Of a DNA stretch of 32,000 nt, positions 3-27,286 are shown one piece after another. The notes below the pieces were generated by a model. It worked only from the letters and a program-made list of their open reading frames with translations. It did no database searches and had not been told where the DNA came from. The stretch's first letter is position 1; every line of letters starts with the position of its first letter. A program made the translations under genes and the position numbers. The DNA is from Streptosporangiaceae bacterium. GTDB lineage: Bacteria; Actinomycetota; Actinomycetes; Streptosporangiales; Streptosporangiaceae. The stretch covers positions 93,161 through 125,160 of the forward strand of contig DATGGU010000012.1 in assembly GCA_035308365.1 (NCBI GenBank). The letters run 5' to 3'.

Positions 3-734
3 GAGCGGCAGGCCGAGGATCTCGTCGGCGGCCGGATCGACGCGGCGTGGAACTCCCCGCTGGCCTGGATTCGGGCGCGGCGGCTGGCCGACGCCGCGGG
101 AATCAAGCTGGAAGCCCTGGTCATGCGGGACACCGACCGGGATCTGCGGTCCCTGGTGGTCACCAAGGTGGGCTCGGGCATCGAGAACCTGTCCCAGCTC
201 GACGGCCGCACGATCGCCGTCGGCGCCGTCGACTCGCCGCAGGCCAACCTGCTGCCGGTGTCGCTGCTGCGCAAGAACGGCCTGATCCCTGGGGAGAACC
301 TGACCGTCCGGCGGTTCGACGTGGGCGTCGGGCTGCACGGCGACCACATCGGGGGCGAGCGGGATGCCGCCCGCGCGCTCATGGCCGGTGCGGTGGACGC
401 GGCCTGCATGATCGACGCGAACCACCTGCTGTTCTCCCGCGAGGGTGTGCTGCCGGCCGGATCGACCACGGTCATCGGCGAGACCGACCCCTTCGATCAC
501 TGCAACATGACGATCGGGCCGTCCGCCGACCCGGCGGAGGTGAGCCGGTTCCGCGAGCTTCTCCTAGCCATGTCCTACGACGACGCCACGCTGCGCCCGC
601 TGCTTGACCTGGAGGGCCTGAAGCTGTGGTGTCCCGGCCGCACCAGCGGGTATCAGGCGCTGGAGACGGCCGTTGACGAGATTGGCTTCTACGGAAGTGG
701 TGGTGATGTCCGCGCCAGCGACTATCGACCTTGA
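3..734 (+). CDS. PhnD-like periplasmic substrate-binding protein (phosphonate/phosphite ABC type); 5' end lies outside the window
   Basis: The frame is open from nt 3 with no stop before the listed start at 123. It reads ...GRIDAAWNSPLAWIRARRLADAAGIKLEALV. Together with DGRTIAVGAVDSPQANLLPVSLLRKNG and MIDANH in the 123..734 ORF, this resembles the PhnD/transferrin-type SBP family. GC3 is high. Confidence 0.7.
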   Translation, partial: ERQAEDLVGGRIDAAWNSPLAWIRARRLADAAGIKLEALVMRDTDRDLRSLVVTKVGSGIENLSQLDGRTIAVGAVDSPQANLLPVSLLRKNGLIPGENLTVRRFDVGVGLHGDHIGGERDAARALMAGAVDAACMIDANHLLFSREGVLPAGSTTVIGETDPFDHCNMTIGPSADPAEVSRFRELLLAMSYDDATLRPLLDLEGLKLWCPGRTSGYQALETAVDEIGFYGSGGDVRASDYRP

Positions 735-1893
735 GGATCTAGGCCTGGAGTCCGGAGGCCACCTGCTCGTGCAGCGTGGCCTCCGGGACCTTCCGGTCGG
801 CGGGCGGCTGTCCGTCCGCGGCCAGGATCCCGCACTGCGCACCCACCTGGGTGCCTGGTGCCGCAGCCAGGGTCACGGCATCGACCTGACCGGCGTAACA
901 CCCGTCGTGGTCAAGGGCTCGGCGAGCAGCGCACGCTGGCACCGCGCCGAACGGGCCGGCCGTCCTGACGTCAATGGAGTGGTGCCACGGGCGGACGTCC
1001 GCTGGGGCCTCGCGCCACGTGGCGCCCTGGTGGAAGAAGGTGGCCCGCCGCTCAACGTGGACCTCATCGACCAGGATGTGGTCTGGGCGGACGCGGCCAG
1101 GCAGCTCTATGTGAACGGCGCCGCCCGGCAGTGGAACCCCGATACCGCCATCGCCTGGGACGCCGAGTTCGAGCTGCCCGAAGAGATCGAGACCGCGGTC
1201 GTTCAGGTGATGACCTACCTGATCGAGAACGAGTACGCGGCGCTGCAGATACCGGCCAAGTTCATCGGGCGCCTGCACCCGCACTATCGCGAGGTGATGC
1301 AGGTTCTCTCGGTGCAGGTCGCCGACGAGGCCCGCCACGTCGAGGTGTTCACCAGACGGGCGCTGCTGCGTTCCAGCGAACTCGGCGTGTCCGGCGCCGG
1401 TGGCCGGGCTTCGCTGCAGACCCTGCTCGACGAGCCGGATTTCTCGCTCGCCGCCTTCCTGCTTTCGGTGCTCGGAGAGGGCAGCTTCCTGGATCTGCTG
1501 TCCTTCATCGCGCGGCACGCACCCGACCCGGTGACCCGTGAGGTGGCCAGCCTCGCCCAGCGGGACGAGCGCCGGCACGTGGCGTTCGGGATGGCGCACC
1601 TGAAATACGCGGTCGAGGCCGACCGGTCGATGCTCGGCCGGATGCGGATGGCGGCCGAGCGCCGGCATGACGCACTGGCCAGTACCGCGGGACTCAACCA
1701 GGACGTCTTCGATTCGCTGATCGTCCTGGCCGCGCATTCCTGGTCGCCCGCCGCGATCACCGACGGCTGGAGCGCCGTTCAGCAGTTGCAGTACGACATG
1801 GACCAGGGCCGGCAGCGCCGCCTGGCTCAGCTCGGCTTTCCCGCTGACGAGGCGACCGAACTGTCCGCGCTGCACACCCGCAACTTCATGTAG
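706..1893 (+). CDS. Ferritin-like di-iron carboxylate protein with an N-terminal TusA/SirA-like domain that lacks the Cys
   Basis: It has the four-helix di-iron ligand pattern E / EXXH / E / EXXH (IENEYAAL, ADEARHVE, LGEGSF, RDERRHVAFG). The N-terminus (GGRLSVRGQDPALRTHLGAWCRSQGH) looks TusA-like but has no CP motif. ATG at 706 follows GGAAG and is preferred over the TTG at 673. It overlaps the upstream stop by 29 nt. Confidence 0.7.
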   Translation: MSAPATIDLEDLGLESGGHLLVQRGLRDLPVGGRLSVRGQDPALRTHLGAWCRSQGHGIDLTGVTPVVVKGSASSARWHRAERAGRPDVNGVVPRADVRWGLAPRGALVEEGGPPLNVDLIDQDVVWADAARQLYVNGAARQWNPDTAIAWDAEFELPEEIETAVVQVMTYLIENEYAALQIPAKFIGRLHPHYREVMQVLSVQVADEARHVEVFTRRALLRSSELGVSGAGGRASLQTLLDEPDFSLAAFLLSVLGEGSFLDLLSFIARHAPDPVTREVASLAQRDERRHVAFGMAHLKYAVEADRSMLGRMRMAAERRHDALASTAGLNQDVFDSLIVLAAHSWSPAAITDGWSAVQQLQYDMDQGRQRRLAQLGFPADEATELSALHTRNFM

Positions 1894-3678: not shown

Positions 3679-4731
3679 TCAGTTCTGGACGACCTGGTTT
3701 CTGCGCTTCACCCGGCTCGGTTCGTAGCTCTGCCGCATCATCACGATGGACGCCACCAGCCAGGCCCCCGCGGACGGTATGAGCAGCACCACGGCGATCC
3801 ACACGTTGCTCACGGCGGCGACGAATCCGGAGGTCAGGACCAGCCGCTCCACCACGATGATCTCGTGTGAGCGCAACGAGGTCAGCCGGGGTATCGGCCG
3901 CGGTGCGTGAATCAGCATGAGACCCGAGACCAGGCTCATCGCCACGGAGGCGGCCAGGAAGGGGACGTATCCGGCGAGGTGGAAGCGCGCGCCGAGGGTG
4001 AGCGGATAGCCGGCCGCCAGGCCCAGCCAGCCGAGGTCGAACGTGAGCAGCAACCACAGGGCCGGGGTGTCGCCGTGACGCACCGGGAACGTGCGGTAGC
4101 CACCGCTCCGGTCGCCGTCCCGGTCGCAGATGGCACCTATGACATTCGACCCGGAGTCGTGCAGCCAGAAGATCAGGGCGATCGGCAGCAGCCTGGGCTG
4201 CAGTGCGTGGCTGGTGGCCAGCGTGCCGTGGATAAAGGCCATGGCCGTCACCCCGCCGCGGACCAGATTGCCCCAAATGCCGTGCGCCTTAAAGTACTTG
4301 CTGTACGAGACGCCAAGCGTGAGGGCGGCAAGGACGACAAAGAAGTTCAATGGGTTCAGCAGAACCGCAATGACCATTCCGAGCAGCACGCAGACGACCA
4401 TGCCTGCGAATGCCTCCCAGGGCTTTACCCGGCCAGACGGCACCGGCCGCTGGGGCTTGGTTTTGGTATCCAGATCGCGGTCGAAATAGTCGCCACCATA
4501 CATGGCGGCGACCCAGCCGAGACTGGGTGCCAGCCAGGTTCCGATCAATCGCAGGGCAGGCCTGTCGCCCGACGCGAGCAGCGCGCCGGACACGCTGACC
4601 AAGCCGGTGTAAGAGAACAGGTCGAGCCGCCATATCTCGACATGCGCCACCAATCGGTCCCGCAGCTTGAGCCGTGGTTGCCCGGCGGCGAAGCCCGCGT
4701 CAGCACGGCCATAGGGAGACCTCACAGTCAC
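3679..4731 (-). CDS. UbiA-family membrane prenyltransferase or UbiA-type terpene synthase
   Basis: Two Asp-rich motifs (GGDYFDRDLD and ICDRDGDRSGGYRTFPV) in a polytopic hydrophobic protein. GTG at 4731 sits 8 nt after GAGAGGA. The stop is 27 nt upstream of the cyclase start, consistent with the same operon. Only the 3' third of the 1051-aa track ORF is real. Confidence 0.85.
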   Translation of the reverse strand: MTVRSPYGRADAGFAAGQPRLKLRDRLVAHVEIWRLDLFSYTGLVSVSGALLASGDRPALRLIGTWLAPSLGWVAAMYGGDYFDRDLDTKTKPQRPVPSGRVKPWEAFAGMVVCVLLGMVIAVLLNPLNFFVVLAALTLGVSYSKYFKAHGIWGNLVRGGVTAMAFIHGTLATSHALQPRLLPIALIFWLHDSGSNVIGAICDRDGDRSGGYRTFPVRHGDTPALWLLLTFDLGWLGLAAGYPLTLGARFHLAGYVPFLAASVAMSLVSGLMLIHAPRPIPRLTSLRSHEIIVVERLVLTSGFVAAVSNVWIAVVLLIPSAGAWLVASIVMMRQSYEPSRVKRRNQVVQN

Positions 4732-4941
4732 GACAGCGTTCCTCTCGGTTTGTCGGCATGCGTGTTCGCGGCCTGCGCGGACGAGGAGGAGGCAGAGCGC
4801 TCGGGTAGGGTCAGGTTTGCACGGAGTCTGGGAAAAGTGAAGTTGCACCCTGTTTATGTGCGGCAATGGCGACAACCGGTCTTTAGCCGCGGCCAAACGG
4901 GGAACTTCGCTTTTTATGGGATCGAGCGAAGGGGTGACGGC

Positions 4942-6237
4942 ATGCGAGCAATAACCCAGAGCGCGGAGCAGTTGGCCGGCTGGGTCATCGACGGCTGCCA
5001 GCGGACGCTGGATCTGGTGGCGGACCTGGACGACGAGCAGATGGTGGGCCCACTGCTGCCCACGGTAAATCCCCTGCTGTGGGAGATCGCCCACCTGGCC
5101 TGGTTCCAGGAGAAGTTCGTCCTCCGCCAGGCCTGCGGCCAGCCGCCGATCCTGAGCTTCGGGGACGCCCTGTACGACTCGGGGGCGATCCCGCACGACA
5201 CCAGGTGGCGGCTGGCGCTGCCGTCCCGCGAACAGACCGCCAGTTACATGCGCGAAGTGGCCGACCGGGTGGCGCAGGAGGTGCTGCGCCCGGACGCGAC
5301 CGACGTGGTGCGGCACTTCGCCCGGTACACCGTGCACCACTACGACATGCATACCGAGGCGCTGACATACACCAGGCAGACCCTGGGATTCCCGCCTCCC
5401 GTGCTGCCCGGGTCCACCGGCACACCGCAGGCGGCAGCCCTTCCCCGGGCGGGCGGACTGCCCGGGGACGTCGAGTTGCCGGGGGGGCGGTTCCTGCTCG
5501 GAGCCCTGCTGAGCGACCCGTTCGTCTACGACAACGAGAAATGGGCCCACCAGGTCGAGATCGCCCCGTTCGCCATCGCCCGGGCGCCGGTCACACAGGC
5601 CGAGTTCGCCGCGTTCGCCGACGACGGCGGCTATGCCGACACCAGGTGGTGGTCCGATGGTGGCGCCTGGCTGGGGGCCACCGGGGCGAAGCACCCGGTG
5701 TACTGGCGGCGCGACGGCGGCGGCTGGCAGCGCCGGCATTTCGACACCTGGGTGGACCTCGAGCCGCACCAGCCGGTGAGCCACGTGTGCTGGTGGGAGG
5801 CGGACGCGTACTGCCGCTGGGCGGGCCGCCGGCTGCCGACGGAGGCCGAGTGGGAGTACGCCGCAACCGGCGATCTCAAGCCGAGGCCCGTCTACCCCTG
5901 GGGTGATGCCGAGCCGGGCGCCGGGCACGCCGTGACCGACTGGCGCTGGTTCGGCCAGGCCGACGTCGCCGCCTGCGCCGAGGGGGACAGCCCGGCAGGC
6001 TGCCGGCAGATGATCGGCAACGTGTGGGAGTGGACGGCCAGCGACTTCACCGCCTACCCCAACTTCGAGCGGGACGCCTACTTCGAGAACTCCGAGCAGT
6101 TCTTCGGCCAGCGTAAGGTGCTGCGCGGGGGAGCCTGGGCGACCAGGGGCCGCCTGCTGCGGTCCACGTTGCGCAACTACTTCACCCACGAGCGCAGGGA
6201 TGTCGTGGCCGGCTTGCGCACCTGTGCGCCCCGCTGA
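4942..6237 (+). CDS. senA: EgtB/OvoA-family non-heme-iron C-S/C-Se bond-forming enzyme (DinB_2 + FGE-sulfatase domains), SenA-like
   Basis: DinB-type N-terminus (NPLLWEIAHLAWFQE). HX3HXE iron motif (HYDMHTE). FGE-sulfatase C-terminus (RLPTEAEWEYAA, GNVWEWT, RGGAW). ATG at 4942 follows AAGGGG. It sits directly upstream of the SenB-like GT. The symbol rests on context and could equally be an EgtB/OvsA-type relative. Confidence 0.8.
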   Translation: MRAITQSAEQLAGWVIDGCQRTLDLVADLDDEQMVGPLLPTVNPLLWEIAHLAWFQEKFVLRQACGQPPILSFGDALYDSGAIPHDTRWRLALPSREQTASYMREVADRVAQEVLRPDATDVVRHFARYTVHHYDMHTEALTYTRQTLGFPPPVLPGSTGTPQAAALPRAGGLPGDVELPGGRFLLGALLSDPFVYDNEKWAHQVEIAPFAIARAPVTQAEFAAFADDGGYADTRWWSDGGAWLGATGAKHPVYWRRDGGGWQRRHFDTWVDLEPHQPVSHVCWWEADAYCRWAGRRLPTEAEWEYAATGDLKPRPVYPWGDAEPGAGHAVTDWRWFGQADVAACAEGDSPAGCRQMIGNVWEWTASDFTAYPNFERDAYFENSEQFFGQRKVLRGGAWATRGRLLRSTLRNYFTHERRDVVAGLRTCAPR

Positions 6238-6246
6238 CGGCCGGAC

Positions 6247-7257
6247 ATGATTCTGCTCGTCAGCCCGGCCGCCGCCGACAGCACGACCGGCAACGGAGTC
6301 ACCGCGCGCCGCTGGGCGGGTTTTCTGCGCGAGCTGGGCCACCAGGTGGAGCTGAGCCGCGAATACCGCGGCGGCGGCTACGACGCACTGCTCGCGCTGC
6401 ACGCCCGCAAGAGCGCGGACGCCATCCGCGCCTTCCGGGCCAGCCATCCGGGTACCCCGGTGGTGCTCGCCCTGACCGGGACGGATCTCTATCCCGACCT
6501 CGCCACCGCCGGTGTGGATCCGGAGGTGCTGGCCATGGCCGACCGGCTGGTGCTGCTGCAGCCACGTGGCCTGGATCAGCTCGATCCGGCCACGCGGGAA
6601 AGGGCCCGGGTGATCGTGCAGTCGGTGCCCCCGATCGAGCGGAAACCGCCGCGGGCCGGCTGCTTCGAGGTGGCCTTCCTGGCTCATCTCCGGCCGGTTA
6701 AGGACCCGCTGCGGCCGGCCGAAGCGGTGCGCGAGCTGCCAGCCGGGTCCCGGATCCGGGTCACTCACCTCGGTGCAGCCCAGGACGCCGAACTCGGCGC
6801 CGCGGCGGCGGCCGAGTCGGCCGCGAACCCGCACTATGACTGGCTCGGCCCAAGGCCACGGAAGGAGGCACTGGACCTGCTGGCCCGCAGCCGCCTGCTC
6901 GTGCTGACCTCACGGCACGAAGGCGGCGCCAACGTCATCTCCGAGGCGCTGGCCGCCAGGCTGCCCATTGTCTGCTCGGCGATCCCGGGCTCGGTCGGGC
7001 TCCTTGGCGAGGACTATCCCGGCTACTTCCCGGTCGGCGACGGCGGCGCCCTCGCCCGTGCGCTGTATGACGCGGAGCAGGACACCGGCGGCTACTACGG
7101 CGCGTTGCGCGAGCACTGCGCCTCGCTGGCCGGCCTGGTCGACCCCGAACGTGAACGCCGTGCCTGGGCCGGCCTGCTGGCCGAGCTGGCCCTGCCGGCC
7201 AGCGGGTTCGCAGACTTATTCAAAACCAGCCCGGCAGCCTTGACGCCAGGTTCGTGA
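6247..7257 (+). CDS. senB: GT-B glycosyltransferase, SenB-like (selenosugar synthase family)
   Basis: 336 aa. N-terminus MILLVSPAAADSTTGNGVTARRWAGFLRELGH and C-terminal GT4-like core (EGGANVISEALAARLPIV). It starts 10 nt after the senA-like stop. As I recall, the pairing with an EgtB homolog matches the published sen cluster. Confidence 0.7.
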   Translation: MILLVSPAAADSTTGNGVTARRWAGFLRELGHQVELSREYRGGGYDALLALHARKSADAIRAFRASHPGTPVVLALTGTDLYPDLATAGVDPEVLAMADRLVLLQPRGLDQLDPATRERARVIVQSVPPIERKPPRAGCFEVAFLAHLRPVKDPLRPAEAVRELPAGSRIRVTHLGAAQDAELGAAAAAESAANPHYDWLGPRPRKEALDLLARSRLLVLTSRHEGGANVISEALAARLPIVCSAIPGSVGLLGEDYPGYFPVGDGGALARALYDAEQDTGGYYGALREHCASLAGLVDPERERRAWAGLLAELALPASGFADLFKTSPAALTPGS

Positions 7258-7300
7258 GCCGCGGTAGCTGGCTGCTCACCAGCGGTTCTGAATAAGCCTC

Positions 7301-8332
7301 TCAGTAGCTGCGGCCGACGGCCAGGTCGGTGAGGATGCTGAGCCGGTCGCGGCTCGGGCTGGGTGGCAGTTGGTCGAGGGCTGCCCGTGACTGCTTCGCG
7401 TACTGCCGGGCCATCTCGGTGGCCGCGCAGATCGCGCCGGTGCGGTCCAGGATCTCGCGCACGACCGCCAGGACCGGCCCGGCATCGCCGGGACCGAACA
7501 GGGCGTCGCTGATGAGCTGCCGGTCCGCCGGGGTTGCGGTGGAGCAGGCCAGGATGATCGGCAAGGTCGGGCGCCCGTTCTTCACGTCGCTGGCCTGCGG
7601 CTTGCCCATGACCTCAGTGTCGCTGACATAGGGGAGCAGGTCGTCATACATCTGGAAGGCAAGGCCGAGGGACTCACCGAAGTCGCACAGCGCGTCCACC
7701 AGGTTGGGTGGCCCGCCGCCAAGCAGGGCGCCGCTCTTGCACGCGCCGCGGAACAGCGCCGCGGTCTTCAGGCTGATCATCAGCAGATAGGCATCCAGGT
7801 CCAGGCTGCGGTCGCGGTGCAACTCCGCTTCCATGCTCTGCCCCCGGCACAGATCCAGGCCGGCCTGGGCCACCGCCTCCAGCGCCGCGACCACCCGGGC
7901 GGCGGGCACCCCGCTGTGGTGGCACTCGGCCAGGCCGGCGAACAGGTCGAAGATCAGCGCATCGCCGGCGATGATCGCGTCGGCGATCCCGTATGCGCAC
8001 TGCACGGAGGGCCGGCCGCGGCGCAGGTCGTCACCGTCGATGATGTCGTCGTGGATCAGGCTCGCGACGTGGCCACATTCGGCGCCGACGGCGGCCGGGA
8101 GAACCGCGGTGGCGCTGCCACCCACCGCGAGAGCGGCTTCGAGCAGCAGCGACGGCCGGAAGAGCTTGCCGGTCGGGACCAGCGCGTAGTGGCAGATCGA
8201 GGCCAGCAGCCCGGGCCGGCCGGTCCAGCGGGTTTCGAGCGCGCCCCCGACCAGCGAGGTCGTGGTTTCACCGGCGGCGATGCAGTCGTCGTGCTGCTGC
8301 CGAATCCCGGTCTCCAGCGTGCCATCCGTCAT
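7301..8332 (-). CDS. Polyprenyl diphosphate synthase (GGPP/FPP synthase family)
   Basis: First Asp-rich motif is LIHDDIIDGDDLRRGRPS. The second motif region is FQMYDDLLPYV, followed by GKPQASDVKNGRPTLP. ATG at 8332 follows GGGAGTG. Confidence 0.9.
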   Translation of the reverse strand: MTDGTLETGIRQQHDDCIAAGETTTSLVGGALETRWTGRPGLLASICHYALVPTGKLFRPSLLLEAALAVGGSATAVLPAAVGAECGHVASLIHDDIIDGDDLRRGRPSVQCAYGIADAIIAGDALIFDLFAGLAECHHSGVPAARVVAALEAVAQAGLDLCRGQSMEAELHRDRSLDLDAYLLMISLKTAALFRGACKSGALLGGGPPNLVDALCDFGESLGLAFQMYDDLLPYVSDTEVMGKPQASDVKNGRPTLPIILACSTATPADRQLISDALFGPGDAGPVLAVVREILDRTGAICAATEMARQYAKQSRAALDQLPPSPSRDRLSILTDLAVGRSY

Positions 8333-8411
8333 CGCTGCTCACTCCCGCCCATGGTGCTGCCTGGGCGCACGCATCCATTGCTGGCTGCAGGATTCATCGT
8401 CAAACTCCAAA

Positions 8412-8443
8412 GGTCTTTATGATCACCGGTCTTTATGATCACC
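8412..8443. repeat. Perfect 16-bp tandem direct repeat (GGTCTTTATGATCACC x2) upstream of the polyprenyl synthase gene
   Basis: Read directly from the sequence. It lies 80-110 nt upstream of the start at 8332, in a locally AT-richer stretch. On the coding strand it sits just upstream of a TTGACG hexamer. Each unit contains the TGATCA palindrome. Confidence 0.6.
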
Positions 8444-8521
8444 GCAGAAATGACCCGATGGGCGCTTGACGCTAGCAGTTGAAACGCCGCGGAGAAAGAG
8501 CTTGACTGACAGTCGACAATC

Positions 8522-9178
8522 TTAGCTGACCGGCCTATTCTCAAGACTCCATTCCAGCATCCCGCCGTTCAGCCGCCTGGCCCGCCAGCCATTGGACCGC
8601 AGCAAGCGGACGGCCGCATAAGCGAGCACGCAGTACTCGCCCCGGCAGTATGCTACGACCTCGAGATCAGCGGGTAGTTCGGACAGCCGCTGGCATAGTT
8701 CGTCCAGCGGTATTCCGATTGCACCCTCGATGTGCGCGGCGGTGAACTCCGTCGCCGGCCGCACGTCGAGCAGGACCAGTTCGCCGTTCCTGAGCCCGTC
8801 GAGCAGGTCGTCCCGGCTGATCGCCTCGACCTCGTCTTCCCCGAGAAACTCTCTGGCCACCCGCTCGGTCTCGGCCAGGTACATCATCGCCACGTCGCGC
8901 AGCATGACATAAAGCCTGGCCACGTCGCCGGCGGCCAGCCGGTAGTAGATCCGGGCCCCGTCCCTGCGGCCGCGCACCAGCCCGCCGGCCCGCAGCGTCT
9001 GCAGGTGTGCCGAGGCCGTGGTGAGCTTGAGTGCGGTGGCCTGGGCCAGTGACTCCACGGTACGCTCGCCCTGCGCGAGCACGTCTATGATCTGCAGCCT
9101 TTTCGGGTTCGCCAGCGCCTTACCGACGCGAGCCAGCTGATCGAAAAGTGCATCCTTTGTGCGAGCGCGATCAGACAT
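8522..9178 (-). CDS. ArsR/SmtB-family HTH regulator fused to a C-terminal rhodanese domain
   Basis: ArsR wHTH (LANPKRLQIIDVLAQGERTVESLAQATALKLTTASAHLQTLRAGGLV). Rhodanese domain (LLDVRPATEFTAAHIEGAIGIP ... VVAYCRGEYC active-site loop). Confidence 0.85.
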   Translation of the reverse strand: MSDRARTKDALFDQLARVGKALANPKRLQIIDVLAQGERTVESLAQATALKLTTASAHLQTLRAGGLVRGRRDGARIYYRLAAGDVARLYVMLRDVAMMYLAETERVAREFLGEDEVEAISRDDLLDGLRNGELVLLDVRPATEFTAAHIEGAIGIPLDELCQRLSELPADLEVVAYCRGEYCVLAYAAVRLLRSNGWRARRLNGGMLEWSLENRPVS

Positions 9179-9347
9179 GTCAAGAGTCTCTCACGGCCGT
9201 TATCTCATACCTATATGGCGGCGCCTAATACGGGGTTCAGCCCACTAGTACCTGTGCCGGTTCGCCGCTAGACTCCCGTCGATCGCCGGCCGCTTTGGGC
9301 CGGCCCTCAGATAATGGGCCTTGACATTTCACTGAGTTCACGGACTG

Positions 9348-10529
9348 GTGATTACTGTGGATGCCGTAGCCTTTCCCCGGCCGATGACTCAAGACGGCCT
9401 GCCCGATCCCCTGCTGCTCGAGCTGGCCGCGGACAACCCCGTGCTGCCCGTCGCCGGGCCAGGCGGCAAGGCGTGGCTGATCACCGGCCACGAAGCCGTT
9501 CGCGAGGCGCTGTCCGAGCCCTCCCGGTTCACCAGCGTCATCGATCCGGCGGTGACCGACGCCAGGGCCCGCGCGGGTGTGTCGATGGTGGGGCTGGACC
9601 CACCCGACCACACCCGGGTACGGAAGCTGGCCGCGAAGGCCTTCACCGCCCGGCGCATCCAGGGGCTCGTGCCGAGCGTGGAACGTGTGGTCACCACGTT
9701 GCTGGACGCGATGGCGGAGGCCGGCCCGCCGGCCGACCTGGTGACGTCGCTCGCGGTGCCCCTCCCGCTGCACATGATGTGCCAGATGCTCGATCTGCCG
9801 GCCGAGGACCAGCCCGGCTTCCTGCGCTGGTCCGACGTGTTCACCGGCATGAACACCGGCTACACGATGGAGGAAGTCGCCGACGCCAACGACAAGCTGC
9901 ACGCCTACATGCTCGATCTGGCGGCGCGGCGCAGGAAGCACCTGGGCGAAGACCTGTTGTCCGATCTTATCCGCGCCCGCGATGGCGAGGACGCCCTGAC
10001 CGAGCAGGAACTGCTCAACACGATGGTCCTGTTGCTGGTGGCCGGGCACCAGACCACGGTGCGCGCCATCGCCAGGAGCGTGCTGGTCCTGCTCCACTCG
10101 GGTCAGTGGAAGCGGTTCGCCGCGGCCGAGGTCACCGCCGAGCAGGTGGTCGAGGAGGCGTTGCGGCACCAGACGCCGATCGACACCGGCCTGTTCCGCC
10201 GGGCTGCCGTGGACACCGAGATCGCCGGTGTCCAGATCAAGGCCGGCGAGCAGGTGTTCCTCAGCGTGCACCTGGCCAACTTCGACCGCAACGCCTGGCA
10301 CGAGCCGCACGTGTTCGACCCCGGCCGCGGTGACCAGCGGCACCTGGCATTCGGCCACGGTGTCCACTTCTGCCTCGGCGCGCCGCTGGCCAGACTGGAG
10401 CTCAGCACCGCCCTCAGCCTGCTGGCGGCCCGGTTCCCCGGCCTGCGGATGGACGTCCCGCTTGACGAGCTGACCTGGACGGTGGGTTCATGGCTCAACA
10501 GCCTGGTCGCTCTTCCCGTCACCTGGTGA
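9348..10529 (+). CDS. Cytochrome P450
   Basis: Heme-binding loop FGHGVHFCLGAPLARLE, EXXR (EEALRH) and I-helix LLVAGHQTT. The start is GTG at 9348, with ATG at 9384 as an alternative. Confidence 0.9.
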   Translation: MITVDAVAFPRPMTQDGLPDPLLLELAADNPVLPVAGPGGKAWLITGHEAVREALSEPSRFTSVIDPAVTDARARAGVSMVGLDPPDHTRVRKLAAKAFTARRIQGLVPSVERVVTTLLDAMAEAGPPADLVTSLAVPLPLHMMCQMLDLPAEDQPGFLRWSDVFTGMNTGYTMEEVADANDKLHAYMLDLAARRRKHLGEDLLSDLIRARDGEDALTEQELLNTMVLLLVAGHQTTVRAIARSVLVLLHSGQWKRFAAAEVTAEQVVEEALRHQTPIDTGLFRRAAVDTEIAGVQIKAGEQVFLSVHLANFDRNAWHEPHVFDPGRGDQRHLAFGHGVHFCLGAPLARLELSTALSLLAARFPGLRMDVPLDELTWTVGSWLNSLVALPVTW

Positions 10530-10648
10530 CGCCTGCCCATCCGATGTGCGACACTCCGCAATGCGTATCTTGGCCAATCGCTCGCGATGCTATTCCAGAA
10601 AGGACGCCAGCCCTGCCCACCCCACCAGGCTGGCCGCTATCACCGCGC

Positions 10649-10677
10649 GGACGGCGGAATAATGAATTCCGCCGTCC
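10649..10677 (+). terminator. Strong hairpin downstream of the P450 gene (terminator or attenuator candidate)
   Basis: 12-bp perfect stem GGACGGCGGAAT / ATTCCGCCGTCC with an AATGA loop. There is no U-tract. It lies 120 nt after the P450 stop and 27 nt before the decarboxylase ATG. Confidence 0.4.
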
Positions 10678-10703
10678 CCGCCCGTTAACTGAATGGTCAG
10701 CCG

Positions 10704-12197
10704 ATGAGCATCGAAATCAGTGCTGCGGACCGGGCGAAGCTACTGCATGCCCTGGTGGAAGAGATCGAAAACTATCTTGATACCGCGGCCGATGACACTG
10801 GCCGCTCGCCGGTGGCCGATGCGGACGTCGACGAGCTGCTGGCCGCCTTTGATTTCGATCAGCCGGTAGCCGCGGCCGATGCCCTGGATCTAGCCATTCG
10901 CGGATTGCGTGATATGCAGCCGCGCACCCGGCACCGGCGGTATTTCGGATTGTTCGATGCCACCCCCACGACCATGTCAATTATCGGTGAAGCGCTGTCC
11001 GCCACCTTCAACCCATGCCTGGCCACCCGCAACGGGAGCCCGTTCGGCATCGCCGCGGAGGAAAAGCTGGTTGCCGCATTTGGCGAGAAATTCGGTTATC
11101 CGCCCTGCGAGGTGGACGGAATCCTGACCAGCGGCGGGTCGGAGACGAATCTTTCGGCCATGCTGATGGCCCTTACCCACCGGATTCCCAGCTATCCGCA
11201 GACCGGCCTGATCGGGCTGGCCAGCCGTCCGGTCGTTTACGTTTCGCCGGAGGCCCACCCATCGGTGCCGCGTGCGGCCCGCCTGACCGGCCTGGGTGCC
11301 GAGTCGGTGCGCGAGGTTGAGACCGACTGCGCGCAGCGCATGGACCTGGCCGCGCTGGAGAAGATGATCGTCGCCGACCAGCGGGCCGGGCTGACGCCGG
11401 TTGCCGTGGTGGTGACCGCGGGCACAACCGGCGCGGGCGCCATCGACCCGATCGACGGAGCCGCCTGCATCGCTGCCAGGCACGGGCTGTGGCTGCACGT
11501 CGATGCGGCGTGGGGCGGCGCGGCCGCGCTGCTGCCCGATCCCGACCCGGCATTCCAGGGCCTGGCCAGGGCGGACTCGCTCACCTTCGACCCGCACAAG
11601 TGGATGTCGGTGCCGCTTGGCCTGGGAATGCTGCTCACCCGCCATCGTGGCCTGCTGGCCAGGACCTTCTCGGCCGGCCCGACATTTCTCGACGCCGATG
11701 GGCGGGAGGCGGAGCCATTCAGCCGGTCGCTGCGCTGGTCCCGTAGCTTCGCAGCACTGAAACTGCTGCTTTCACTCGCGGTGACCGGCTGGCAAGGGTT
11801 CGAGGAAACCTTGCGGCAGCAGATGAGGCTGGCCGACGAATTGCGCAAAGGGCTGGCCGGATCGGGCTGGCAGATCGTCAATGACACACCACTGCCGCTG
11901 GTTTGTTTCCTGCCGGCCGACCGGGCCGAACAGCACCCGCACAGATTGCGACTTATCGCCAGGGCCATCAATTCCACCGGTGACGCTCATATCTTCGTGG
12001 TCAAGTCCGGCGGACGGCACGTGCTGCGAGCCTCCATCACGAACTACGCGACCACGGAAGCGGACGTCGTGGCGCTGATCGGCCTGCTCGACGACGCGGC
12101 CCGGCGGTCACAGGGCTTACCCGGCCCGTCACACAACCGGCCCGCATGGGAGGTGCCGCCGCGATGGTCGATACGAAGACCGCGAGCCCCCCGCTGA
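10704..12197 (+). CDS. Group II pyridoxal-phosphate-dependent decarboxylase
   Basis: SGGSETNLSAM, HVDAAWGG and the PLP-lysine motif DPHKWMSVPLG. Confidence 0.85.
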   Translation: MSIEISAADRAKLLHALVEEIENYLDTAADDTGRSPVADADVDELLAAFDFDQPVAAADALDLAIRGLRDMQPRTRHRRYFGLFDATPTTMSIIGEALSATFNPCLATRNGSPFGIAAEEKLVAAFGEKFGYPPCEVDGILTSGGSETNLSAMLMALTHRIPSYPQTGLIGLASRPVVYVSPEAHPSVPRAARLTGLGAESVREVETDCAQRMDLAALEKMIVADQRAGLTPVAVVVTAGTTGAGAIDPIDGAACIAARHGLWLHVDAAWGGAAALLPDPDPAFQGLARADSLTFDPHKWMSVPLGLGMLLTRHRGLLARTFSAGPTFLDADGREAEPFSRSLRWSRSFAALKLLLSLAVTGWQGFEETLRQQMRLADELRKGLAGSGWQIVNDTPLPLVCFLPADRAEQHPHRLRLIARAINSTGDAHIFVVKSGGRHVLRASITNYATTEADVVALIGLLDDAARRSQGLPGPSHNRPAWEVPPRWSIRRPRAPR

Positions 12198-16307: not shown

Positions 16308-16748
16308 ATGCGAGGGCGTTCCGGCCGCTCCTGCTGTGCCCAGGAACCTTCCCTGGGCACCGCCGACCGGTACCTGACCGGGGAGCGGCGCCGGGTCATG
16401 GTGCGCCGGGCGATCCTGGTTGTATCGGCCGCACTATTTGTGGCGGCCGTCACGATATCGGCGTCAGGGGTGGGGCAGGCGGCGCTCGCTCACCGATTGT
16501 GCTGGGGGTCTGCCATCTGCGCGTCCGGCCTTGCGGCCACCTGGATCCGGCAGGCGATGACCACCGGGCGGCCCGGCTGGCGGCTGCTGGCCGCGGTGGC
16601 CGCGGTGGCCGCCGGCATCGCCTGGCAGCCGGTCATCCCGGCGGCCGCGGCCGTCGCCGCGCTGACCGAGCACACGCTGCGCCGGGGCGCCGTCCCGGTG
16701 CTCACCGCGCGAGCCGGTTCCCGTCAGGTAGCCAGGACGAACGGCTGA
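16308..16748 (+). CDS. Small hypothetical membrane protein
   Basis: ATG at 16308 lies 4 nt after a strong SD (GAAGGAGG). It has three hydrophobic, Ala-rich segments, high GC3 in the distal two-thirds and an N-terminal CC pair. I recognised no family. Confidence 0.45.
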   Translation: MRGRSGRSCCAQEPSLGTADRYLTGERRRVMVRRAILVVSAALFVAAVTISASGVGQAALAHRLCWGSAICASGLAATWIRQAMTTGRPGWRLLAAVAAVAAGIAWQPVIPAAAAVAALTEHTLRRGAVPVLTARAGSRQVARTNG

Positions 16749-16771
16749 CTCCGGTGTCCTCGTTCGTCTTC

Positions 16772-25988: not shown

Positions 25989-26248
25989 AGCAGAGTCTCC
26001 ATGTCGTACTCTCGGTCGCTTGTCATATACCGCCTGGATCGCCGATGTGCCCGGATAGCATAACTAACTTTCGCCGCCGGGCGTGAGCCCTGGCGACAAA
26101 TTGCCATCCGCAAGTATATAACCCGGCGATTCGTACACCATCTCCCTTTGTGGCTTTCGCCGGAGCGCACAGTTAGTATGAGCGGAGCGTGATCAGCTTC
26201 ATGATCGTTAACAGTTGACGTGGTCCGGTCCTGCCGGGGAGGAATGCT

Positions 26249-27286
26249 GTGGTGTATGCGGGTCGGCGGCTGACCCAGTTCAGCAGCGGCGCTGGTTGAG
26301 CCTGTAAGTTCGCGCCCAGCGAACTGGCGCAGGTTCTGCGCTCCATGACACCTGTGGTTCATCCGGATCTGATCGTCGGCACCGAGACCGGTGACGACGC
26401 GGCGGTCTGGCGGATCAGCGACGACCGCGCGCTGGTGGCGACCGCCGACTTCATCACGCCGATCGTCGACGACCCCCGGACCTGGGGCAAGATCGCGGCC
26501 ACCAACTCGGTCTCCGATGTCTACGCGATGGGCGGGCGGCCACTGTTCGCGCTCAACCTGGTCGGCTGGAACAGCAGCGAGCTGCCCACCGAGCTGCTCG
26601 GCGAGGTGCTCTCCGGCGCGGCCGAGGTCGGTGCCGAGTGCGGGTTCGTGGCCATCGGCGGGCACACGGTCGAGGATCCCGAGCCCAAGTTCGGCCTGGT
26701 CGTGATCGGTGAGGTGGATCCTGCCCGGGTGCTCACCAACAGCGGGCTGCGCGACGGGGACGACCTGGTGCTGACGAAACGGCTCGGCACCGGCATCGTC
26801 GCCACGGCGATCAAGCAGGCGGTGGCGCCGGATCCGGTCGCGTCGGCGGCCATCGAGTCGATGACGACGCCGAACGCGCGAGCCGCGGCGGTCGCGGTGG
26901 CGGCCGGTGCCACCGGCTGCACCGACGTCACCGGGTTCGGGCTGCTCGGCCACCTGAGCCGGATGGCCGAGGCGTCCGGCGTCGACGTCGAACTCGACGT
27001 CTCGGCGGTGGCCCTGCTGCCCGGCGTGGCTGAGCTCGCGGAGAAGGACATGGTGCCCGGCGGCTCCCGGCGCAACCTCGCCTGGGTCCGTGACCGGCTG
27101 GATCCCGGTGACGCTCCGGAGCTCACGCAGCTCATCCTGGCTGACGCCCAGACGTCGGGCGGCATGTTGTTCGGCGTCGAGCCGGGCCGTGCACCTGGTG
27201 TGGTCGCCGAGATAACCGCGGCCGGTGTGCCGGCCGCCGTGGTCGGCCGCGCGAGCAGTGGGACCGGCCGCGTCCGGCTGCGCTGA
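26249..27286 (+). CDS. selD: Selenide, water dikinase (selenophosphate synthetase) with an in-frame TGA read as selenocysteine at 26297-26299
   Basis: The track ORF (26345..27286) is clearly SelD (DDAAVWR, TADFITPIVDDPRTWGKIAATNSVSDVYAMGG, TDVTGFGLLGHL, QTSGGML). The same frame upstream reads V(V)YAGRRLTQFSSGAG-TGA-ACKFAPSELAQVLRS. This matches E. coli [24 protein letters not shown] with TGA at the Cys17 position. GTG at 26249/26252 follows GGGGAGGAA. Confidence 0.85.
26301..26333 (+). promoter_or_regulatory. SECIS-like hairpin immediately downstream of the selD UGA
   Basis: CCTG-TA-AGTTCGC-GCCCA-GCGAACT-GGCG-CAGG. The inner stem is 7 bp and perfect (26307-26313 / 26319-26325) with a 5-nt loop. 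The outer stem is 4 bp. It starts 2 nt after the TGA. Confidence 0.5.

Follow-up and report, generated by a model that had tools for sequence, protein, structure and literature searches.

Selenocysteine (Sec)-containing SelD, with the motif UxxK, is an experimentally verified selenoprotein family and the second most widespread one in prokaryotes (PMC13188914), and as early as 2006 FdhA and SelD were named as the bacterial selenoproteins with the widest distribution (PMC1794560). Selenoprotein genes of UGA-rich actinobacteria are known to suffer from truncated calls in annotation (PMC13449736). According to the bSECISearch model summarised in PMC13188914, the bacterial SECIS (bSECIS) has a 4-16-bp stem and a 3-9-nt apical loop with a G within the first two loop positions (usually followed by G or U), a distance of 16-37 nt from the UGA to the loop and a minimum free energy of -7.5 kcal/mol or lower. 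A SelD homologue is also present as SenC of the senABC cluster, in a genome with SenA and SenB; the V. paradoxus SenC was characterised from E. coli expression, and a Sec-type SenC is not mentioned in that work (Kayrouz et al., bioRxiv 10.1101/2022.04.13.486033).

We analysed a stretch of 32,000 nucleotides of Streptosporangiaceae DNA (the window), for which an earlier sequence-only reading had proposed that selD is itself a selenoprotein gene. This core claim is supported by the conserved UGA, by covarying hairpins and by a reading frame under selection, and we consider it very probable (about 0.9) that the gene at 26249/26252-27286 encodes a full-length Sec-type selenophosphate synthetase (SelD) whose UGA is recoded via downstream RNA structure. 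With the Sec-type SelD/SPS2 family (TIGR00476) the window SelD shares the full-length match, the UGA at the position of the catalytic Se-binding loop, the Lys three residues after Sec and structured RNA directly downstream of the UGA, and it shows no difference in kind. The gene is thus an added case of the known Sec-type SelD family, with no new mechanism; that such SelD proteins are known in other bacteria had been noted in the sequence-only reading, in agreement with PMC13188914 and PMC1794560. Its further point, that the synthesis of this SelD needs selenium itself, follows from SelD being a selenoprotein and has long been established in the literature. The window lineage (soil actinobacteria near Pseudonocardia and Streptosporangiaceae MAGs) is represented in databases only by a 310-317-aa truncation of the protein.

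Reading frame of selD and its in-frame UGA

The selD gene and its translation signals were located as follows.

26249..27286, + strand: full-length selD coding sequence, 345 codons including the predicted UGA-Sec codon; start GTG at 26249 or 26252, stop TGA at 27284-27286
26238..26242, + strand: Shine-Dalgarno-like GGAGG, 6 nt ahead of GTG 26249 and 9 nt ahead of GTG 26252, kept in the closest MAG (L006)
26297..26299, + strand: in-frame UGA, predicted Sec codon, at the position of E. coli SelD Cys17; the counterpart of Lys20 is AAG at 26306-26308
26345..26347, + strand: internal Met33 codon (ATG), mistaken for the selD start by ORF callers

The frame is closed upstream by a TGA at 26216-26218 and open from 26219, and it translates as (V)VYAGRRLTQFSSGAG, the TGA at 26297-26299, ACKFAPSELAQVLRSM and on to the stop at 27284-27286; the coordinates given earlier for the open frame (from 26219), the GTG codons (26249/26252) and the TGA (26297) all agree with the sequence. 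The mechanical ORF list begins selD at ATG 26345, with a product of 313 aa, which the sequence-only reading had regarded as a gene cut short, suggesting that the extended product be aligned with the family model. The 345-aa product, with C substituted for U, matched TIGR00476 (selD) at 370 bits (cut-off 125), residues 7-313 lying on profile positions 1-309, so that the N-terminus is covered from the first profile position, and it also matched NF002098 at 345 bits (cut-off 299). Moreover, L006 and L086/L087, the two relatives closest to the window, have a CTG (Leu) codon in place of ATG 26345, which therefore is not the selD start. Both results bear out the truncation, which is also widespread in databases: each of the nine closest relatives there is entered as a fragment of 310-317 aa, and the 313-aa product is itself on record. 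The remainder of the gene is intact, with a GC3 of 0.89.

The alignment to E. coli SelD (PDB 3u0o) extended residue for residue over about residues 7-336 (E = 2.3e-75) and placed the TGA on catalytic Cys17 with Lys20 retained, as had been proposed. The N-terminal glycine-rich loop reads RLTQFSSGAG-U-ACK, with SGAG-U-AC-K opposite HGAG-C-GC-K of E. coli, and thus contains the UxxK motif, whereas in E. coli Cys17 is encoded by TGY and there is no recoding signal. The 5' leader of the gene (window 26217-26248; 9969-10000 in L006) differs between the window and L006 at a single position and is thus better conserved than the coding sequence, in which the two share 90% nucleotide identity; a sigma-70-like promoter was not detected in this leader.

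Confirmation of the TGA at 26297 in independent data, a check that the sequence-only reading had proposed, was obtained from five other metagenome assemblies (ENA, JGI, NCBI) which carry the exact 313-aa product and are identical to the window in the TGA and its flanks. Among them, L001 (from ENA) belongs to a variant strain, set apart by two SNPs in a nearby gene and a 49-bp indel. We further screened SelD loci in one genome per species and examined the same codon in the 80 homologous loci returned, of which 54 had TGA and 26 had TGC or TGT (Cys-type). The TGA-type loci include L006 (labelled Streptosporangiaceae, 87% identity), many Acidimicrobiales, other Actinomycetota, Gemmatimonadota, Chloroflexota and others, and the TGA is kept in the relatives at 87% (L006) as well as at 74% identity (L086/L087). 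We compared the ten codons preceding the TGA among 51 distinct TGA-type genes. They spell out the family motif R-L-T-x-[FYL]-S-H-G-A-G with a wide variety of codons (six for one Arg, five for one Leu), and their pairwise differences comprised 5234 synonymous versus 2631 non-synonymous ones. Judged by these codon comparisons, the segment upstream of the TGA is under purifying selection, unlike a non-coding leader.

In the window, TGA is an ordinary stop that terminates 20 of the 27 ORFs, selD among them; the predicted recoding would therefore be local, and reassignment of TGA in the genetic code was ruled out. A GC3-based scan of the window for other in-frame TGAs with coding signal on both sides yielded only gene-gene junctions, thus the window holds no second selenoprotein gene to vouch for the Sec trait.

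RNA structure downstream of the UGA

Three helices were delineated around and after the UGA.

26307..26325, + strand: hairpin H1, 7-bp stem AGUUCGC/GCGAACU with loop GCCCA, -9.5 kcal/mol; the inner stem of the sequence-only reading
26327..26341, + strand: hairpin H2, 6-bp stem GCGCAG/CUGCGC (7 bp with G26326-U26342), apical G-GUU-C, 33 nt from the UGA
26298..26336, + strand: outer stem H0, which encloses H1, with 26298-26305 paired to 26329-26336 and including the GA of the UGA

The hairpin described earlier at 26301-26333 consists of H1 and five H0 pairs; its inner stem has 7 bp and its loop 5 nt, and it is the fold of minimum free energy. Folding of this single sequence was within chance (z = -1.67; 17 of 200 shuffles folded as well), and we therefore relied on comparative analysis, testing the helices in an alignment of 47 distinct TGA-type selD sequences. 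In these genes 88.4% of the cells were paired in H1, with four pairs changed on both sides, and 93.6% in H2, with three. Jointly, the two hairpins were 90.8% paired, versus 26-46% with partners slid, and their covariation, amounting to seven pairs changed on both sides, was reached by none of 500 shuffles. One compensation in H1, found in the window clade, pairs a CTC-to-TTC change (Leu to Phe) with a synonymous GAG-to-GAA change, converting C:G into U:A; in H2, GCG...CGC is opposed to ACG...CGU (12 sequences), the pair 34-48 being GC in 29 sequences and AU in 12. RNAalifold independently predicted H2 and the four apical pairs of H1, the latter with outer pairs other than those of H1. Cys-type selD genes paired H1 at 65% and H2 at 46%, and those of Bacteroidota folded weakly.

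The claim that RNA structure follows the UGA thus holds for H1 and H2, both of which covary, and the originally described hairpin is upheld in its inner 7-bp stem. As a conserved element the outer stem H0 is weakly supported: 81.6% of its cells were paired, a single pair had changed on both sides, and synonymous C26302A in L006 breaks one of its pairs. H0 and H2 have nucleotides in common and are mutually exclusive; in free RNA H0 with H1 is the most stable combination (-23.0 kcal/mol, versus -19.6 kcal/mol for H1 with H2).

Selection on the RNA was also apparent from the coding sequence itself. Over codons 7-32, a single codon, synonymous, was changed relative to L006 and likewise a single, synonymous one relative to L086 (98.7% nucleotide identity), whereas the rest of selD was 90.1% identical to L006 and 77.0% identical to L086 at the nucleotide level. 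Such suppressed synonymous change is the signature of an RNA element that overlaps the coding sequence.

Measured against the bSECIS model, H2 lies within the limits in every respect (loop GUU, stem of 6-7 bp, 33 nt from the UGA, -8.0 to -9.6 kcal/mol). It resembles the consensus in its 3-nt loop (5 nt if counted as G-GUU-C) and in having G and then U at the first loop positions, and would be the likeliest SelB-binding element. H1 deviates from the model in spacing alone, with 14 nt against the lower bound of 16 nt; its loop sequence is not conserved across phyla. The placement of a hairpin at the site of a bacterial SECIS, as put forward in the sequence-only reading, agrees with H1 save for the 14-nt spacing, and it is H2, unseen in that reading, that has all the features of the model. 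What the consensus lacks is the extra conserved hairpin between the UGA and H2. A scan of the window at Rfam gathering thresholds found nothing and a permissive scan of 26230-26400 gave chance hits only, with no bacterial SECIS model matched, so the covariance-model search that had been suggested as a check did not recover the element: no Rfam family matches the region.

The SECIS of E. coli fdhF is a single hairpin, while the SECIS region of the window selD has two in tandem, an arrangement common to selD genes of Actinomycetota, Chloroflexota and Gemmatimonadota. The closest Cys-type gene, selD of Pseudonocardia xinjiangensis (L088, 10001-11035), pairs an H2-like hairpin at six of six positions (GCGCAGGUGCUGCGC), which has either survived a conversion from Sec to Cys or arisen from the AQVLR peptide together with GC-rich codons. 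The complementarity of H2 could likewise stem in part from the AQVLR peptide and GC-rich codon usage.

Selenocysteine machinery and alternative readings

We searched for the genes that decoding of UGA as Sec would require. The window, the 5 kb beyond and L001 yielded neither tRNA-Sec nor selA or selB, and a tRNA scan of the window found no tRNA. A metagenome scan with Pseudonocardia SelA gave, among the matches listed (at least 80 loci), no contig attributable to the window organism; these matches included none from samples 3300005537 or 3300005541 and no selD of more than 70% identity. The machinery was found in relatives. The TGA-type selD of an actinomycete MAG (L030), which is 65% identical and has every pair of its H1 and H2 stems intact, is directly followed by tRNA-Sec (Rfam 65.6 bits), selB and selA; in L085, tRNA-Sec, selA and selB adjoin selD, and in P. 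xinjiangensis selA and selB adjoin the Cys-type selD. The window organism would, as the sequence-only reading implied, carry selA, selB and selC, and Sec is predicted to be inserted at UGA 26297.

The selD gene might instead be a pseudogene or encode an N-terminally truncated SelD, the TGA being a fixed nonsense codon and translation starting at ATG 26345 without the catalytic loop. This is the 313-aa product that ORF callers and public databases record, and it would fit the failure to find Sec machinery in the window, 5 kb beyond it or among the metagenome SelA matches listed. Yet different phyla share the TGA, the frame upstream of it and the glycine-rich motif, with changes that are mostly synonymous; the closest relatives have CTG in place of the supposed start; the gene is otherwise intact, with its high GC3; and compensatory changes maintain hairpins specific to TGA-type genes. 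We therefore regard a truncated or decayed gene as highly improbable. A sequencing or assembly error for TGC or TGT is negligible as an explanation, given that the same TGA is present in the five other ENA, JGI and NCBI assemblies, sequence variants included, and also in related species.

Alternatively, selA, selB and selC may have been lost and the UGA may be read through without Sec (e.g. by a near-cognate Cys or Trp), leaving the hairpins as relics. The H2-like hairpin kept by the Cys-type L088 gene indicates that relic structures can persist, and the Sec machinery of the window organism is a prediction. Against this, selD of this clade is far better conserved at synonymous sites near the UGA than elsewhere, which points to ongoing RNA-level selection, and the TGA has been retained in the relatives at 87% and 74% identity, although one substitution would give TGC or TGT, the outcome expected if Sec decoding had been lost. 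Relatives (L030, L085, L088) also carry the Sec machinery. Read-through of this kind appears very unlikely.

Under the preferred reading of selD as a Sec-type gene, translation would begin at a GTG behind GGAGG, and SelB carrying Sec-tRNA(Sec) would recode UGA 26297 as Sec, directed by H1 (26307-26325) and then H2 (26327-26341) immediately downstream, with the apical G-GUU-C of H2 as the likeliest contact for SelB. In free mRNA the 3' arm of H0 would overlap H2; because H0 includes the GA of the UGA, it must open on arrival of the ribosome, which would free H2. The resulting protein would carry Sec in its N-terminal glycine-rich loop (UxxK). The selenophosphate made by it would serve Sec synthesis and, most likely, also the selenoneine pathway of SenB and SenA, whose genes lie 19 kb upstream. 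A more far-reaching proposal, which we consider unlikely at present, is that selenocysteine and selenoneine synthesis form one combined system whose single hub is the Sec-type SelD of this clade, in keeping with the gene layout of L030. The conserved region of three helices would then be a switch and not a plain SECIS, H0 and H2 alternating while H1 keeps a fixed distance as a spacer; SelD output, and selenoneine synthesis with it, would be tuned autocatalytically to selenium supply, and the two-hairpin arrangement would form a distinct class of SECIS.

Selenoneine genes and other genes of the window

The selenoneine genes were identified by family models.

4957..6237, + strand: senA (selenoneine synthase) homology region, NF041186 SenA at 480.9 bits (cut-off 420), residues 351-774
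6247..7257, + strand: senB (selenosugar synthase), TIGR04348 SenB at 359.8 bits (cut-off 300)

The senA ORF has 776 aa, is open from 3907 and contains DinB_2 and FGE-sulfatase domains. Its residues 1-350 (window 3907-4956) have no Pfam or NCBIfam match, the SenA of L086 being 432 aa long, and represent either a novel domain or an over-extended ORF.

The sequence-only reading had SelD feed the senAB pathway. The presence of SenA and SenB was confirmed by these matches, whereas the link to selD is plausible but indirect here, as the start of selD (26249) and the end of senB (7257) are 19 kb apart, with more than 12 unrelated genes between them, and the genes are adjacent in relatives. The three-gene senABC cassette is absent from the window, selD not being co-localised with senA-senB. 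Like SenC, the window SelD is a SelD homologue in a genome with SenA and SenB; unlike SenC, it is of the Sec type and is encoded 19 kb from senAB. In L086/L087, the 74%-identical TGA-type selD directly adjoins senA-senB in divergent orientation, and L030 has a compact "selenium island" (4572-11662) with senB, senA, TGA-type selD, tRNA-Sec, selB and selA within about 7 kb. TGA-type selD is found together with senAB also in two Chloroflexota (L058, L063). On the strength of these gene arrangements, the window selD is the counterpart of the sen-linked selD genes and probably supplies both the Sec and the selenoneine pathways, with selenophosphate predicted to pass from SelD to SenB. The SelD of L030 has the variant loop HCAG-U-AGK. 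Genes for a phosphonate-binding-protein-like and an AurF-like protein adjoin senAB in the window (123-1893) and lie downstream of selD in L086 (12310-14374); a rearrangement may therefore have separated selD from senAB in the window lineage.

Surveys of SelD and SenC that are built on annotated proteins mis-score this clade, because the close relatives are stored without the catalytic loop. Furthermore, sen gene sets co-occur with Sec-type SelD in several lineages, in which the small-molecule (selenoneine) pathway should require selenium itself as well as the machinery that decodes Sec, an incremental point.

Several other genes of the window deserve mention. A gene on the - strand (8522-9178), 1.3 kb downstream of senB, encodes an ArsR/SmtB HTH domain fused to a rhodanese domain, the latter with a weak match to NF041203 "rhodanese-related (seleno)protein" (36 bits, below the cut-off). 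Between senAB and selD, a run of organometal and corrinoid genes occupies 16499-21319.

Within 16499-21319: CpaM corrinoid-protein-associated methyltransferase, NF043040 at 254 bits
17410-18498: HgcAB-like fusion protein, NF043039 at 302 bits
18508-20511: P-type ATPase
20627-21319: MerB-like lyase

The MerB-like gene of the strain variant L001 has both a Ser-to-Leu substitution and a nonsense change from CAG to TAG (window 20907 and 20933; L001 4612 and 4638), and callers split the gene into two. A Sec codon hidden in this split gene was ruled out, as the CAG-to-TAG SNP is unrelated to Sec. The 49-bp indel of L001 relative to the window lies somewhere between 21319 and 26345.
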